DNA of 64,000 nucleotides from a virus: positions 24,846 to 88,845 of the IMG/VR virus record IMGVR_UViG_3300048856_000029. One strand, 5' to 3'. Numbering within the stretch: position 1 is the stretch's first letter; the number at the start of each line of letters is the position of its first letter. Under the pieces are notes generated by a model, which was not told the origin of the DNA, ran no database searches, and saw only the letters and a program-made list of their open reading frames with translations. This document shows, in pieces, positions 1,751 to 37,253 of the stretch. Made by a program: the position numbers and the translations under genes.

Positions 1751-3126
1751 CTGAAGGAGTATCGATGTCATCGCAGGAAGCAGATGAAACTGCACACGAA
1801 AGCGGAGACGCAGGGCAGGCGCAGTGGGAATTTGATGAGGGCTTTCAGAAGAAGATCGCCTCGCTGTTCCTGCGCGACTCCCGGTTCGCGAACCAGACCA
1901 AAGATCTGATCCAGGGGGAGTATTTCGCCAACACCGCGCATGGCATGCTGGTCGACCTAGTGAAAGACCATGTCGCTGTTCACAAGGCCGTGCCGGACCC
2001 GCGCATCCTTACGCAGCTCGTGAAAGACGCCAAGGCAGCGAAACGTGTCCGCGAGGACATGATTCCCGACATCAAGAAGATGATCGTGGACTCGATGAAG
2101 GCCGATCTTTCGAACGCCAGCTATGTCGTCGGAAAGGTCACTGACTTCGCCAAGCACCAGGCTATGGAGCAGGCGATAATCAAGAGCGTCGAGCTTTTGC
2201 AGCGCGGCGATTTCAAGGGCATCGAGAAGCTGCAGAAAGCAGCGCTTGCGGTTGGCGCCGACTCCGACGACGAGGGTGACTACCACTACTTCCGCGAGAT
2301 CGACAATCGCACACAGCTCCGCGAGGACTGGAAGGCCGGCAAGATCATCAAGCGCGGCATCTCGACGGGCTATTCCGAGATCGACGCGCACCTCTATCAC
2401 AACGGCTGGGGTCGGCGCGAACTGTCGCTGATGATGGGCGCTGCGAAGGCCGGCAAGTCCCTTTCGCTCGGGGAGTTCACCAAGAACGCCTCGCTGCTTG
2501 GTTTTAACACCGCCTATCTGTCGTGCGAAGTCTCGAAGGACATCATCGCAGACCGTCTCGACGCGAACCTCGCCGACACGGCGATGCGTCTGCTGAAGGA
2601 CGATCCGCAGACGGTCAGGGCCAGGATCAAGGCGGCCGAGAAAGCTGCCGGCGAGTTGATCATCCGCGACTTCGCGTCTGGCACACTGAAGCCGTCGAAG
2701 GTCAAGCGCCTGCTCGAAAAATGGCGCGCAGAAGGCATCACCATCGATCTGCTGGCTATCGACTATGCCGACATCATGGCCGCGGAATATCGCTCCGACA
2801 ACACGATCGACAACCTGCGCTCGATCTACATCGATATCCGCGCAATCGCCTATGAAGAAGACCTGGCGCTGCTGTCTGCTACGCAGACGAACCGATCCGG
2901 CGCGGCTGCTCATACGGCCAAGATGACCGACGTCGCCGAAGACTTCAACAAGATCAGAACCGCTGACGTGGTCATCGGCATCAACGCTACCGATGCCGAA
3001 AAGCAGTCCGGCGAAGCGCGTCTGCATTGGGTCGCGTCGCGTAACTCGGAAGACGGCATGTCGCTGCGCATCCGACAGGACCGCGAGAAGCTCAAGTTCC
3101 TCACCAAAGTCCTCGGGAGGGTATGA
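1747..3126 (+). CDS. Replicative DNA helicase, DnaB/gp41-like (true start may be ATG 1765)
   Basis: STGYSEID, Walker A GAAKAGKS, SCEVS, IDYADIM, ATQTNR, SF4 helicase layout. Confidence 0.92.
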   Translation: MTEGVSMSSQEADETAHESGDAGQAQWEFDEGFQKKIASLFLRDSRFANQTKDLIQGEYFANTAHGMLVDLVKDHVAVHKAVPDPRILTQLVKDAKAAKRVREDMIPDIKKMIVDSMKADLSNASYVVGKVTDFAKHQAMEQAIIKSVELLQRGDFKGIEKLQKAALAVGADSDDEGDYHYFREIDNRTQLREDWKAGKIIKRGISTGYSEIDAHLYHNGWGRRELSLMMGAAKAGKSLSLGEFTKNASLLGFNTAYLSCEVSKDIIADRLDANLADTAMRLLKDDPQTVRARIKAAEKAAGELIIRDFASGTLKPSKVKRLLEKWRAEGITIDLLAIDYADIMAAEYRSDNTIDNLRSIYIDIRAIAYEEDLALLSATQTNRSGAAAHTAKMTDVAEDFNKIRTADVVIGINATDAEKQSGEARLHWVASRNSEDGMSLRIRQDREKLKFLTKVLGRV

Positions 3127-3127
3127 C

Positions 3128-4249
3128 GTGTCAGCCGAGATCTTCCAGGAGATCAAGGAGAACCTCGATCTGGAGTTCTTCTTCGACCGCGAGAGCCTCG
3201 CCTTCAAGATGGGGCGCGGCGCTTCAGGTATGCAGATCAACGCCAAGGACTGCCCCGAATGTGGTGACGGTCGCTGGCGCGTCTATCTCAATGCCGACTC
3301 CGGTCTTGGCAATTGCTTCGTCTGCAACGCACCCTTCAACAAGCTCACCTTCATCAAGAAGACCTATGGGCACGAGAGCTGGAAGGATACGATCAAAGTC
3401 TGTCAGGAGGTCATGCGTGACCAGGGCTGGCGTCCGAAGCGCATCGCAACCGTCGCGGTCGATCCCGGCGAGGTGAGACTGCCACATTCGATCGAGCTGC
3501 CCACGCCTGAAGGTGAGAACCTGCAGTATCTCGAAACGCGCGGCGTCACTGGCGAATATGCCCAGTATTTCCGCTTTCGCTGGTGCGAGTTCGGATTCTG
3601 GCAGTTCACCGACGACGATGGCACCAAGAAGATCCAGAAGTTCGACAATCGGGTGATCATCCCGGTCTACGACCTCGACGGCACGTTGAAGACCTTCCAG
3701 GGGCGCGACCTGGCGCCGCCCTTGACCAAGGTGCAGAAGGAGCTCGGTTTCTTCGAGCGACAGAAATACCTCTTCCCGAAGGGTTTGCCTGGCACCGGCC
3801 GCTATCTCTACAACGGCCAGAACGTCATCAGGACGGATGAGATCGCGATGGGTGAGGGGGCTTTCGACGTTGCGGCCATCAAGATCGCCTTCGACGAGGA
3901 CGTCAACCTGCGCCGCGTCGTGCCCGTCGGCTCATTCGGCAAGCACCTGTCCTACGGATCACCGACCGGTGACGATCAGATAGGCCGGCTGCTGATCCTC
4001 AAGCGACAGGGCGTCAAGAAGCTGACGATCATGTGGGATGGCGAGGAGAAGGCATTGATCGCTGCCCTCGACGCAGCCAAGCGCGCGACATCGATCGGGC
4101 TCAAGGCCTACATTGCGCTGCTCCCGCCTGGCAAAGACCCGAACGAGGTGCCGGGCGAAGTCGTGCGCGACGCCTACTACAAGGCGACCCTCTGGACGCC
4201 GGCGATCGACGTTAAATGGAGATTGCGCAATCCCTACGCGGTGAAGTGA
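3128..4249 (+). CDS. DNA primase (Zn finger + Toprim)
   Basis: GTG at 3128 just after the helicase stop; CPEC...CFVC zinc finger, NRVIIPVYD, GEGAFD, MWDGE and KDPNE Toprim motifs. Confidence 0.9.
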   Translation: MSAEIFQEIKENLDLEFFFDRESLAFKMGRGASGMQINAKDCPECGDGRWRVYLNADSGLGNCFVCNAPFNKLTFIKKTYGHESWKDTIKVCQEVMRDQGWRPKRIATVAVDPGEVRLPHSIELPTPEGENLQYLETRGVTGEYAQYFRFRWCEFGFWQFTDDDGTKKIQKFDNRVIIPVYDLDGTLKTFQGRDLAPPLTKVQKELGFFERQKYLFPKGLPGTGRYLYNGQNVIRTDEIAMGEGAFDVAAIKIAFDEDVNLRRVVPVGSFGKHLSYGSPTGDDQIGRLLILKRQGVKKLTIMWDGEEKALIAALDAAKRATSIGLKAYIALLPPGKDPNEVPGEVVRDAYYKATLWTPAIDVKWRLRNPYAVK

Positions 4250-5779: not shown

Positions 5780-7315
5780 ATGAACGCTGCCGAAGCATTG
5801 GAGCGAATTAACGAAATCGCTAACGCAGGAGGTCGCAACGAAAAGCAAACGCTGCTCGCCGGCTTGCTGCAGGACGATCTCGGTCAATTCATCATCAAGT
5901 GGACCTACGATCCGTTCATCACCTACGGCGTTAAGGTCAAGAAGCTGCCGACCTATGCGCAGGAAGGGCCGGTCGAATTTACTGACAAGGTGGTCGAGCG
6001 CGTCCTGACGCAGCTTTCCACCCGCGAGCTGTCCGGTAACGCCGCGAAGGATGAAATCGAGATGTTGTTTGGCGGGCTGGACAATGCCGGCCGCGATCTG
6101 CTGTTTCGCATTCTGAGCAAGGATCTGAAGGCAGGTATCGCCAATTCGACGATCGAAGCCGTCATGCCGGGTTTCCTGCCGACCTTCGGCGTCATGCGCG
6201 CCCATCCTTACGAGGAAAAGCGGGTTATGCAGTTTCCGGTCCCGGTCGAGCCGAAGCTCGACGGAATGCGCTGCACCTTTATTGCGAAAGACGGGAAGGG
6301 GGCTTTCTTCACTCGCTCCGGCAAGGCGATTGAAAGCCTGCAATACCTGGCGAAGCCCTTGCTCGACGCCGCGTCGTTGATCGAGGCGCACGCAGCATCT
6401 GCCGAAGTCGACGACCACTATCGCAACCTCGCCAACTATCTGTTCGGCAGGGATGAAATGCCTGCCTTTGTGCTCGATACGGAGTCGATGAACGGGTTGT
6501 TTGCAAATTCCGGTGCCCTGCGCCGTAAGGGCGAGGAAGCCCGCGACGCCGAGCTGCACGCCTTCGACATTCTGCCCTATGATGGCTTTTTCGGCAGTGC
6601 CTCCTTCCTGGTGCCGTGGGAACAGCGCCGTGCTTTGCTTGAAACCTTCGTTAGCCAGGTCCGCGAGTTCACCCGGGCGCCGGTCTATGCGACCGAGATC
6701 TATGAGGCGAACTCGCACGAGGAGATCGAGGCCCTTTACGAGCGCATGATCAACCGAACGCTCGCCAACTATCTCGCCCGCGGGGACCAGGAGCGCGAGA
6801 AGGAGCTGGAGAAGATCACGGTGGACGACGCGACCGGCGAGCTGAAGTGCCTCGAGGGCGCGATGGTCAAAACCTATGACGGCGCCTACGAGAAGAAGAA
6901 ATCCTACACCTGGCTGAAGATCAAACCCGAGGACACAATCGACCTTTTCATCGTCGGCTTCTTCAACGGTGAGGAGAATAGCGAGAACGAAAACCGCATG
7001 GGCGGCGCGATCGTTGATCATAAAGGCGTCAACGTGCGCGTAGGCGGTGGCTGGAAAAGCAAGGAGCGCGAAGAACTCTGGGAAGACTGGTGCCACGACG
7101 CCAATATTCTGGGCATCGATCCGCATGTCGGCTTCAAACCTGGCTGGTCGACCTCGTTCGAACAGATCCAGCGTCACGCTCATCGCTTCAAGTTCCTCGG
7201 CCGCATGACCGAGTTGGAGTTCAACGAGGTTACGCCTGACGGCTCGCTGCGCCACCCGCGCCAGAAGCGCTTCCGCGATGACAAGGCCGGCGAGGTATTG
7301 CGGGAAGCCGCGTAA
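5780..7315 (+). CDS. ATP-dependent DNA ligase (T4 gp30-like)
   Basis: Motif I EPKLDGMRC, TRSGK, EGAMVK, WLKIKP, SLRHPR. Confidence 0.93.
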   Translation: MNAAEALERINEIANAGGRNEKQTLLAGLLQDDLGQFIIKWTYDPFITYGVKVKKLPTYAQEGPVEFTDKVVERVLTQLSTRELSGNAAKDEIEMLFGGLDNAGRDLLFRILSKDLKAGIANSTIEAVMPGFLPTFGVMRAHPYEEKRVMQFPVPVEPKLDGMRCTFIAKDGKGAFFTRSGKAIESLQYLAKPLLDAASLIEAHAASAEVDDHYRNLANYLFGRDEMPAFVLDTESMNGLFANSGALRRKGEEARDAELHAFDILPYDGFFGSASFLVPWEQRRALLETFVSQVREFTRAPVYATEIYEANSHEEIEALYERMINRTLANYLARGDQEREKELEKITVDDATGELKCLEGAMVKTYDGAYEKKKSYTWLKIKPEDTIDLFIVGFFNGEENSENENRMGGAIVDHKGVNVRVGGGWKSKEREELWEDWCHDANILGIDPHVGFKPGWSTSFEQIQRHAHRFKFLGRMTELEFNEVTPDGSLRHPRQKRFRDDKAGEVLREAA

Positions 7316-24813: not shown

Positions 24814-25135
24814 CCGCGACGTCTTTCTCGCCAACAAGAAGCTGGACAACCTGATCCGGTTTGGCGAGAAATGCGGCTCGGATGCGGTCCGCAAGGAAGT
24901 CGCAGCCTGGGCGTTGGACGAGGAAACGCTGACTGAGCTCCGGCTCAAGGGCCTCAAATGGGTCGGCGTTCAGGTCCGCAACAATGGCGATATCTACGTC
25001 ACCCACATCTCCAACTACCTGGATTACGAGAAGACGCGCCCACCGGCAGTCGTCAACTCCTCTGTGCAGCGGCGATATCTGCCGCTAAAGTATTTTACTC
25101 ACCTTCCGGGGCGCATGAAGGTTCCGCGCCGCTAA
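24734..25135 (+). CDS. Hypothetical protein
   Basis: 133-aa basic ORF with host-like codon usage. Confidence 0.65.
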   Translation: MARKPKVKTTEIKRGRRIVGRIYHFANRDVFLANKKLDNLIRFGEKCGSDAVRKEVAAWALDEETLTELRLKGLKWVGVQVRNNGDIYVTHISNYLDYEKTRPPAVVNSSVQRRYLPLKYFTHLPGRMKVPRR

Positions 25136-31688: not shown

Positions 31689-31710
31689 GATAAGTCATTA
31701 CTGACTTATC
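31689..31710. promoter_or_regulatory. Fully palindromic operator copy upstream of the RNR gene
   Basis: GATAAGTCA-ttac-TGACTTATC. Confidence 0.85.
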
Positions 31711-35143: not shown

Positions 35144-35239
35144 AATACGCACCGTCGTAGTTTGGACACGAGTGACTCTTGCACCCTGTAAGAGTGAGTC
35201 TTACACCTAGTTAGATACGTCCGCAACTCAAAATTCCTG

Positions 35240-35283
35240 TTGCAGCCCATGTGAGCTTCGTCTATTAAGTAAATACTGACTGA
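35240..35283 (+). promoter_or_regulatory. Promoter TTGCAG-N17-TATTAA with overlapping operator
   Basis: TTGCAG 35240, TATTAA 35263, operator ATTAAGTAAATACTGACTGA 35264-35283. Confidence 0.75.
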
Positions 35284-35370
35284 TAGCGAGTAGTCATCGG
35301 TTCAATTAGATACGACGAGGTGCGAATGAAGCTCTGAGCAATAGGTGGCCGTTCGAACGGTATTGACTAA

Positions 35371-35479
35371 CCAAGACGTGCCGGGAGCGTCAGAAAACAA
35401 GCCCGGCGCTTATGTGAGGCGCTGCGGTCTTGGAGATAAGTGAGGTCTCCTTCGATCGATAGGCCAGCGCCTCTCATAA
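35371..35479 (+). ncRNA. Candidate structured RNA with possible pseudoknot
   Basis: 35371-77 pairs 35427-33; 35380-85 pairs 35402-07; 35411-24 pairs 35465-78 (one mismatch); no credible ORF. Confidence 0.4.
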
Positions 35480-35481
35480 AC

Positions 35482-35568
35482 GATCTGGTAGCGAAGTGGT
35501 TGAACGCGCAGGACTGCAAATCCTGTTCCGTAAGGGCGTCGCTGGTTCGAATCCAGCCCAGATCTCCA
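35482..35568 (+). tRNA. tRNA-Cys(GCA), 87 nt, long variable arm, encoded CCA
   Basis: Acceptor GATCTGG/CCAGATC, U73, anticodon arm CAGGA-CTGCAAA-TCCTG, T arm GCTGG-TTCGAAT-CCAGC, 15-nt variable region. Confidence 0.92.
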
Positions 35569-35570
35569 TT

Positions 35571-35650
35571 CAGCGGCAGCTTCTCCCCTGGGCTGTCCGT
35601 CTCCGACCAGGAGGTTCTCTCCTCCTCCCAAGCGCCTCCTGGTCGGCCCA
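35571..35650 (+). ncRNA. Cuckoo/ar14-like two-hairpin sRNA candidate
   Basis: Hairpin with TTCTCCCCT loop, then 12-bp stem CCGACCAGGAGG/CCTCCTGGTCGG with a CTCCTCCTCCC loop. Confidence 0.55.
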
Positions 35651-36296: not shown

Positions 36297-37253
36297 GTGT
36301 CGAAAGACCAGATGTTCGCCAAGGTCGTGCTTGCATCCAAGCCAACCAACGGCGCGCCACCCATCATCACAATGCACTGGCACTACCCTCGCCCCATTCA
36401 CGGCGAGGTCATGACGCATCGCGTCTTCAGCCGGAACGCTAGATCCTCGCGCGCCGTGCCTGTCGCGACGATGCTGAAGGAGATCCGTGAGGCTCCGTTC
36501 GTTCCGTGGCACTGGGGAAAGAACCAGAAGGGGATGCAGGCCGGCGAAGAGTGCAAAGGGCTCGTTGATATGAGCGGCACCCTGTTTGCTGGCATCGGCA
36601 ATCCGCTCGTGCGCGAAAGCGCCTGGAAGCTGGCCGCAGAGTCCGCCGCTGGTATGGCCGAAGCCTTCTCCGACGCCGGCTACCATAAGCAGATCGCCAA
36701 CCGTCTGATTGAGCCGTTCTCCTGGATCGACACGCTGATCACCTCGACGTCCTGGGCGAACTTCCTGCATCTGCGCGATCACAAGGACGCTGAGCCGCAC
36801 TTCCAGGATCTCGCCGCGATGGTTCGGGAGGCGATCGACAGTGCAGAGTTCGAACCTCTCCGCCCCGGACAGTGGCATCTCCCGTATGTCCCGCATTGGG
36901 AGCGCGCAGATATCGTTAAGGCAATTACCGGCAAAAAATGGGACGAAGATTGGGATCAACGTGACTACCTGGCGATGGCGAAGATCTCCGTCGCCCGTTG
37001 CGCCCGCATCTCCTACAAGCCTTTCGACGGAGACGGCTCCATTGAGAAGGAGCTGGAGCGCTATGAGACGCTCGTCGGCTCGTCACCGCTGCACGCCTCA
37101 CCGGCCGAGCACCAGGCCACACCTGATTGGACTGAGGTCGATTATCACGGTGAGCCGCTGTGGGCCAACCAGAACCTGTCCGGCAATCTCGGCCCCGGCT
37201 GGATCCAGTATCGCAAGACACTGCCCGGCGAATACATCGCCGACGCGGCATGA
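36297..37253 (+). CDS. thyX: Flavin-dependent thymidylate synthase (ThyX/Thy1 phage type)
   Basis: THRVFSRNARSSRAVP, HKQIANRLIEPF, NFLHLR, HASPAEHQA. Confidence 0.88.
   Translation: MSKDQMFAKVVLASKPTNGAPPIITMHWHYPRPIHGEVMTHRVFSRNARSSRAVPVATMLKEIREAPFVPWHWGKNQKGMQAGEECKGLVDMSGTLFAGIGNPLVRESAWKLAAESAAGMAEAFSDAGYHKQIANRLIEPFSWIDTLITSTSWANFLHLRDHKDAEPHFQDLAAMVREAIDSAEFEPLRPGQWHLPYVPHWERADIVKAITGKKWDEDWDQRDYLAMAKISVARCARISYKPFDGDGSIEKELERYETLVGSSPLHASPAEHQATPDWTEVDYHGEPLWANQNLSGNLGPGWIQYRKTLPGEYIADAA

Follow-up and report, generated by a model that had tools for sequence, protein, structure and literature searches.

The DNA considered here (the window) is a 64,000-nt stretch, positions 24,846 to 88,845, of the IMG/VR virus record IMGVR_UViG_3300048856_000029, which is 115.7 kb long and 99% complete. 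A leader of about 200 nt, ending just upstream of a tRNA-Cys gene, is flanked on one side by a class II ribonucleotide reductase gene and a divergent PadR-like gene, and on the other by an operon of small genes and the thymidylate synthase ThyX (Table 1). This leader is a real, conserved and previously undescribed structured RNA motif of narrow distribution, carried by some 21 phage-plasmids of the Rhizobium group. An initial annotation, made by eye, had taken it for an ORF-free (open reading frame-free) leader holding an unknown non-coding RNA with a pseudoknot, perhaps a tRNA-processing element. The non-coding RNA has been borne out as a conserved structured leader module with no match in Rfam.

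The window is from a phage(-plasmid) of the RHEph10 group of Rhizobiaceae. Its relatives include the ~116 kb Rhizobium phages RHEph10, RHph_N1_10, N1_15, N2_6 and Y2_11, a 115.7 kb plasmid of Pararhizobium qamdonense, and several contigs from IMG/VR, NCBI, JGI, ENA and Logan; RHEph10 itself has been treated among the phage-plasmid-like elements (PMC7969092). By BLAST, positions 35312-35425 of the window are ~78% identical to an unannotated gap of RHph_N1_10-type phages. Copies of the leader were gathered by pattern scans, from contigs encoding relatives of P0001 (the small protein encoded downstream), and with a covariance model, R1, built from the first copies. The final set comprises 21 phage or plasmid copies, the window included, and one decayed chromosomal remnant (L025). 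Counts out of 20 refer to the complete copies, while the frame test of the mini-ORF used 16 distinct sequences. Transcription is predicted throughout from sequence signals.

Table 1. Features of the leader and its surroundings, in window coordinates
Feature	Position	Strand	Remarks
Promoter TTGCAG (35240-45), 17-bp spacer, TATTAA (35263-68)	35240-35283	+	conserved in relatives
5'-terminal hairpin TGACT / AGTCA	35277-35296	+	minimum free energy (MFE) fold prediction; weak evidence
Shine-Dalgarno GAGGTG (35317-22) and mini-ORF ATG AAG CTC TGA (35326-37; MKL*)	35317-35337	+	20/20 complete copies
Small hairpin CCGTTCGAACGG (35349-60), then GTATTGACTAA (35360-70)	35349-35370	+	resembles right operator half
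Near-invariant 37-nt block CCAA-GACG-T-GCCGGG-AG-CGTC-AGAAAACAAG-CCCGGC	35371-35407	+	21/21 copies
GC stem, GCCGGG with CCCGGC	35380-35385 / 35402-35407	+	covariation
Possible pseudoknot stem; A-rich loop	35375-78 with 35388-91; 35392-401	+	complementarity in all copies
Long hairpin, arms 35410-24 / 35465-79, including TATGTGAGGCGCTG (35411-35424) and CAGCGCCTCTCATA (35465-35478)	35410-35479	+	abuts block; ends 2-3 nt 5' of tRNA
GTCTTGG, window-specific partner of CCAAGAC (35371-35377)	35427-35433	+	outside conserved module
tRNA-Cys(GCA), long variable arm	35482-35568	+	variable cargo slot, not constant partner
Two hairpins with CCUCCUCCC-type loops, further cargo	35571-35650	+	weak U tract after last
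P0001-family gene, 91 aa	35676-35951	+	always 3' of leader and cargo
Thymidylate synthase ThyX	36297-37253		identified by Pfam and PHROGs

Conservation and structure of the leader

The most strongly conserved part of the leader is a 37-nt block that has been kept near-invariant while the neighbouring protein shows merely 42-64% identity; protein coding through the block is ruled out by stops and indels. Within it, a GC stem is supported by covariation. Of 21 distinct rows of the alignment, 15 have GC and six have AU at one pair, which is never half-changed, with the AU variant found in at least three distinct sequence backgrounds; one copy has a G.U at the closing position, and the sole mismatch belongs to the decayed chromosomal remnant. 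The GC hairpin alone is worth approximately -11 kcal/mol. The tetramer GACG, just 5' of this stem, is complementary to a CGUC within its 15-17 nt loop in all copies, a pairing that would add about -5 kcal/mol before any knot penalty. An H-type geometry is feasible in 21/21 copies, with a 4-bp stem, 1-2 nt, the 6-bp GC stem, 2-3 nt, and an A-rich loop of 9-10 nt. The linkers around the two invariant tetramers vary in number and identity (A, U or UU; AU, AG, UG or AAC), as expected of pseudoknot loops, and the final loop residue of the block is G, A or absent. Whether a local H-type pseudoknot (GACG:CGUC plus GCCRGG:CCYGGC) forms is put at about even odds. A fifth pair, GACGN/NCGUC, was considered and dropped: it is seemingly compensatory (A-U vs U.G), but breaks in copies of the UU type.

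Directly 3' of the block, in 17-18 of the 20 complete copies, stands a long hairpin of 70-148 nt, with a folding energy of -33.5 kcal/mol in the window. The arm sequences differ between copies (CCUUAUG..., UCUUAUG..., CUUGAGC..., CCUUACUCGAGG...), each pairing with its own 3' arm. In an alignment of nine copies, 8/14 pairs are changed on both sides and 97.5% of the cells are paired, which none of 500 shuffles reached, and the G.U pairs fall on the + strand. An identification as an integron attC-like or homing-site hairpin was rejected: genes for an integrase or endonuclease are lacking, and other bases are conserved. The long hairpin of RHph_N1_10 bears CCUCCCC and CCUCCC loops at its apex (L002, about 2620-2655). 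Terminator-like hairpins followed by UUUU stand directly 3' of the long hairpin in L005 (- strand, 3230-3300), L008 (7105-7170) and L026 (2762-2815), and the same module is placed in the hairpin apex in L007.

The three helices on which the pseudoknot of the initial annotation was built lie exactly where it had placed them, and the first and last do interleave in the window. When compared across copies, the long hairpin and the GC stem stood, while the knot-forming helix CCAAGAC:GTCTTGG, and with it that pseudoknot topology, proved to be confined to the window: in 11 other copies tested, no complement of 6 bp or more turned up in a similar position. Chance alone would give about one such 7-bp helix in 197 nt (mean of the shuffles, 1.0). 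The whole leader folds somewhat better than its shuffles (z = -2.2), and of the three helices its MFE fold contains only the GC stem and the long hairpin.

The leader is not free of ORFs, as had been thought, since a Shine-Dalgarno sequence and a three-codon mini-ORF stand in its 5' half in the window, and both are found in all complete copies. The Shine-Dalgarno sequence is mostly GAGGUG, with GAGGCG or AGGG in a few; AUG is followed by AAG in 19/20, then by zero to two codons and a stop, for a total of two to four codons. The encoded peptides are MK, MKL, MKF, MKK, MKQ, MKR, MKSL, MKHL, MKLI, MKRL and MTKF, so that the last sense codon may specify Leu, Phe, Lys, Gln, Arg or Ile, and all three stops (UAA, UAG or UGA) are used, in six or more different contexts. 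Between copies, the ORF varies in length by multiples of three only. Frame 0 stops within four codons in 16/16 distinct sequences, against 1/16 for the control frame +2, where the median is 14 codons. Regardless of the length of the mini-ORF, the distance from its stop to GACG is 35-39 nt. From this pattern we conclude that selection probably acts on translation of the tiny ORF and not on its peptide. A second ORF, re-initiating at a GUG past the stop, was dropped as its frame is not conserved.

In the spacer between mini-ORF and block, the small hairpin of the window differs from that of L029 and L031 (CCGATCAATCGG) by one compensatory change, U-A to A-U, and L035 is intermediate, with a U.U mismatch. 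The sequence TTGAYTRA is kept in every copy and matches the half-sites of a repeated phage operator. A second CGUC, about 6-13 nt past the stop codon (6-9 nt in most copies), is predicted to pair with GACG. The helix CGUCGG/CCAAGACG (P1) appears in the MFE folds of RHEph10-type copies; it is absent in L029 and L031 and weak in the window, and was therefore rejected as a helix of the module and retained only as a possible competitor.

The family is narrow. A loose pattern for the block returned, from IMG/VR, only GC-rich chance matches beyond the known family, and a metagenome pattern scan gave no matches. Neither covariance model R1 (150 Rhizobiaceae genomes) nor a pattern allowing three mismatches (400 genomes) yielded new copies. 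PLSDB holds one plasmid with the leader, and a profile-guided IMG/VR scan recovered known loci only. The sole match in a pattern scan of species-representative genomes was the remnant L025, a decayed promoter and leader core on a contig of Rhizobium sp. 2YAF20 (6830-6990, - strand) lying beside transposase fragments and a two-partner-secretion gene; its mini-ORF is lost, with Shine-Dalgarno and ATG both mutated, as is its hairpin. The Rfam scan that the initial annotation had called for (Rfam 15, 4227 models, window 35275-35481, at gathering thresholds and E = 10) gave noise only (MIR844, E = 8), and in the leaders of 10 relatives, at E = 0.5-1, only tRNAs were recognised, with no match to the leader. 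The failure to find hammerhead or HDV cores by eye is matched by the models, none of which, twister, pistol and hatchet included, hit at E up to 10.

Promoter, cargo slot and downstream genes

The promoter that had been called clear is borne out by its conservation: the -35, the exact 17-bp spacer and the -10 are kept in 14 of the 15 relatives checked. A generic promoter scan did not list it. From these elements, transcription probably starts near 35275. A copy of the repeated operator motif, of ~18-20 bp, overlaps the promoter at 35264-83; approximately 26 copies occur in the window, usually immediately 5' of a Shine-Dalgarno and ATG, and a promoter of this design, with its operator, normally precedes genes in this phage. 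The relatives have inverted repeats at the place of the 5'-terminal hairpin, differently built.

What follows the leader is variable. In the window the module does abut a tRNA, as first described, but a tRNA stands next to it in just 4/20 complete copies (the window, L007, L036 and L008), and in the latter three it is an ordinary 75-nt tRNA-Cys. The slot is filled by tRNA-like or other structured modules in L002, L005, L006, L029 and L031, by a gene for a small membrane protein in L029 and L031, and by a lipoprotein gene in the Pararhizobium plasmid, while N1_15 and Y2_11 have no cargo and their hairpin abuts the operator copy and ribosome-binding site of the next gene. The tRNA is thus optional cargo of the leader, and since the cargo differs from copy to copy, the leader is not a tRNA-processing element. 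The constant partner is the P0001-family gene (~90 aa), upstream of which the covariance model finds the leader core in 21/21 loci; neither leader nor gene was found elsewhere in the PLSDB and profile-guided IMG/VR searches.

Possible roles and known counterparts

The reading we favour, with a probability of about one half, is that the element is a cis-acting leader of an operator-controlled early operon, which would act as a 'launch pad' with a slot for cargo, lending stability, processing and regulation. Its parts stand in the order 5' hairpin, strong ribosome-binding site with the mini-ORF, spacer of ~36 nt, 37-nt stem-loop, and long hairpin stacked upon the latter. The 5' hairpin, the ribosomes on the mini-ORF and the compact folds could together form a stable head, protecting a long, largely untranslated transcript from RNases, 5'-end-dependent decay and Rho. 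The long hairpin may be an RNase III-type target that separates or insulates the leader from its cargo. In the window, RNase P would be expected, from its known action at tRNA 5' ends, to trim the leader 2-3 nt past the hairpin. The invariant block is hypothesised to gate downstream expression as a site recognised by its sequence, whether by a protein, by RNA polymerase or by the ribosome; a ribosome terminating on the mini-ORF might mask the upstream CGUC, and so free GACG for the CGUC of the loop.

Several observations weigh against this reading or parts of it. GACG and CGUC are invariant in 21/21 copies, which leaves their stem uninformative on covariation, and at 4 bp it is thermodynamically marginal. 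Ribosome-gated folding rests on 4-nt complementarities; it fails in L029 and L031, where the upstream CGUC is absent, and is weak in the window, where that CGUC lies farther from the stop. L029/30 and L031/32 lack the long hairpin, which is thus not essential to the core. A dimeric DNA-binding site could likewise account for the symmetric changes of the inverted repeat, and some of the conservation of the spacer, resembling as it does a phage DNA operator, may act at the DNA level. The roles suggested for RNase III, RNase P and Rho are drawn from analogy only.

In layout, the nearest analogue is the lambda pL-nutL-RNase III hairpin-N leader. In both, an early promoter under operator control is followed by a small stem-loop whose loop is purine-rich, a long double-stranded hairpin and a small gene, and the cis-acting control of early-operon expression and processing proposed here follows the same analogy. 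The two are distinct in that no boxA was seen by eye, the 6-bp stem and 15-17 nt loop contrast with the 5-bp stem and 5-nt GNRA-like loop of boxB, a mini-ORF is present, and the downstream protein is without an arginine-rich motif. Neither sequences nor models show any similarity, and here the phage has an alphaproteobacterial host. The mini-ORF is closest to minigenes of the lambda bar type. The arrangement GAGGTG-N3-ATG AAG CTC TGA has the minigene format of a Shine-Dalgarno, a start, one to seven sense codons and a stop, and resembles bar and other 2-8 codon minigenes in being a phage-borne ORF of two to four codons behind an early promoter, with an unimportant peptide. The bar minigenes are toxic in pth-defective hosts through sequestering one tRNA (PMC2490762), whereas the varied last sense codon seen here argues against the sequestration of one tRNA, and the fixed distance between ORF and conserved structure suggests a structural or regulatory role.

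Two further systems bear on the block. HK022 put RNA is also a structured, strongly conserved RNA of ~70-100 nt just 3' of an early promoter, and by the same token the leader could act on the transcribing polymerase; put consists, however, of two stem-loops without ORF or pseudoknot, it shows no similarity to the leader, and antitermination here would be an argument from analogy. The possible knot is closest, again by analogy, to that of the T4 and T2 gene 32 leader, a pseudoknot in a phage mRNA leader that is recognised by protein and has a 1-nt loop 1. The shared geometry would be a 4-bp stem, a loop 1 of 1-2 nt, a 6-bp stem and an A-rich loop 3 of 9-10 nt. The gene 32 knot lies just 5' of the regulated start codon, while here it is 130-1100 nt to the next real start, and the first stem is putative.

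Among the other ways to read the same observations, it is unlikely that the stem-loop or pseudoknot is an RNA operator bound by the downstream 90-aa P0001-family protein, as an autoregulatory or N/nut-like antitermination pair. Leader and gene co-occur strictly (21/21), the invariant loop nucleotides suggest sequence-specific recognition, and the succession of promoter/operator, small stem-loop, long hairpin and small gene recalls that of lambda. However, P0001 has no known domain in Pfam or PHROGs and no arginine-rich motif, N-terminus included, its AlphaFold model is of low confidence (pLDDT 58), and no boxA- or boxB-like features were found. It is also improbable that the leader is released as a trans-acting small RNA, a processed piece of ~200 nt that reaches from the transcription start to the 3' end of the long hairpin and acts on host or phage targets. 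RNase P could release such a piece in the window, where the hairpin ends 2-3 nt from the tRNA, and in other copies different cuts or terminator-like modules might do so; L005, L008 and L026 have a terminator-like hairpin and UUUU after the long hairpin; and most relatives carry a further operator copy before the downstream gene, which could give that gene its own promoter. Phage-plasmid leaders are, moreover, a known source of immunity RNAs (P1 c4, N15 CA RNA, P4 CI RNA). These RNAs, with that of P7 and with the leader-derived small RNA IsrK of Gifsy-1 (PMC4825925), would be the closest analogues of a dual role as leader and small RNA, sharing a position in the leader of a repressor-controlled phage-plasmid operon and, possibly, a 3' end that RNase P generates by cutting at a tRNA or a structure resembling one. 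Against this, C4 (RF01695) and all other Rfam families fail to match; a duplex search, itself uninformative, brought out neither conserved pairing with the translation start region downstream nor another conserved antisense target; and the neighbourhood is one of nucleotide metabolism, not of immunity or antirepressor genes. The window has neither operator nor promoter separating the tRNA from the gene that follows, so that the RNA must also serve as a leader.

A DNA-level element, in which the inverted repeat GCCRGG-N15-17-CCYGGC and the operator-like sequence are protein-binding or recombination sites and the RNA folds incidental, would explain why operator-like sequence occurs in the spacer, and symmetric half-site changes would mimic covariation; in L029 and L031, the variation of the cargo begins exactly at the 3' end of the block. 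Such an element is nevertheless very unlikely, given that the half-site spacing varies from 15 to 17 bp, that one copy has a G.U at the closing position of the stem, that the block is single-copy in the genome, and that the adjoining long hairpin covaries over 14 pairs, which a DNA-binding site leaves unexplained. The model of the initial annotation, a pseudoknotted tRNA-processing element or a new self-cleaving ribozyme that frees the tRNA or other cargo, drew on the interleaved helices of the window and the abutting tRNA, and ribozymes, too, may combine a near-invariant core with a variable hairpin. With the knot-forming helix limited to the window, the tRNA adjacent in 4/20 copies and no ribozyme model matching at E up to 10, it is now highly improbable. 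Hardly any weight falls on a riboswitch for a nucleotide- or folate-related ligand controlling the thymidylate-synthase operon. The leader does sit between ribonucleotide reductase/glutaredoxin genes and the thymidylate synthase gene, and a compact, pseudoknot-like fold with invariant nucleotides is in keeping with one, but no Rfam riboswitch matches, an expression platform is lacking (there is neither a terminator nor a ribosome-binding site close enough to be sequestered), and the element is restricted to one small phage-plasmid clade, not having been found in ~550 Rhizobiaceae genomes or, bar one remnant, in the species-representative scan. Finally, a more elaborate scheme, quite unlikely as a whole, has the minigene, ~36 nt from an invariant H-type pseudoknot, gating its folding through the competition of two CGUC for one GACG; the pseudoknot would then be a put-like antiterminator or a new self-cleaving or self-processing RNA, releasing swappable cargo RNAs (tRNA-Cys, tRNA-like, CCUCC-loop).

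The element is filed under none of the families compared, because their other testable defining features were not found; only the minigene format and the pseudoknot geometry were. Structured leaders of phage early operons, such as the lambda N leader, put and the c4/CI RNAs, are classic models of RNA-based control, and to our knowledge almost none have come from alphaproteobacterial phages or phage-plasmids beyond P1 and N15. The motif is tied to one protein family, which has no known domain, and marks a slot in which tRNAs, small RNAs and genes for small membrane proteins are swapped. While its narrow distribution and still hypothetical function restrict its immediate importance, it offers a compact system in which to study the cooperation of a tiny ORF with a pseudoknot-like element, and is suitable for addition to RNA family databases.

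Cargo modules and repeated motifs

The cargo slot holds further structured elements. The tRNA-Cys(GCA) (window 35482-35568; L003 344-430) combines a long variable arm of class-II-like type with U73 and an encoded CCA, and a copy 88% identical to it occurs without the leader in Rhizobium phage B1VFA. As the slot holds the ordinary 75-nt tRNA-Cys in L007, L036 and L008, one locus hosts two unrelated types of tRNA-Cys. The CCUCCUCCC-loop hairpins that follow it in the window have a weak likeness to ar14/CcsR1, below threshold. A second conserved non-coding module, starting UUCGCCCGAAYGGGCAACG and with no Rfam match, recurs in the slot of both subclades: in L002 (2760-2930), L005 (- strand, ~3100-3240), L007 (- strand, ~1040-1170), L029 (2000-2270) and L031 (2060-2270). 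Two tRNA-like domains, uncalled by ARAGORN and by the Rfam tRNA and tmRNA models, were also seen, one in L006 (- strand, ~330-480), with a 13-bp acceptor-like stem and a GGUUCGACUCC T-loop, and the other in L031 (~1920-2065), with a T-arm and a GCCA end.

The operator motif (GATAAGTCAATACTGACTGA type, 18-20 bp) stands upstream of most operons, for example at 31689, 35264, 37252 and 57445, and may represent an operator regulon or a piece of a phage-specific promoter. In relatives, a near-copy lies within the leader (AAGTCCAAAATTGATTGA), and another directly 5' of the P0001 gene. The repeated inverted motifs of GTCTTACAC / GTAAGAC type that lie between the leader promoter and the divergent PadR-like gene (window 35165-35215; L026 2415-2470) are probably the PadR operator.

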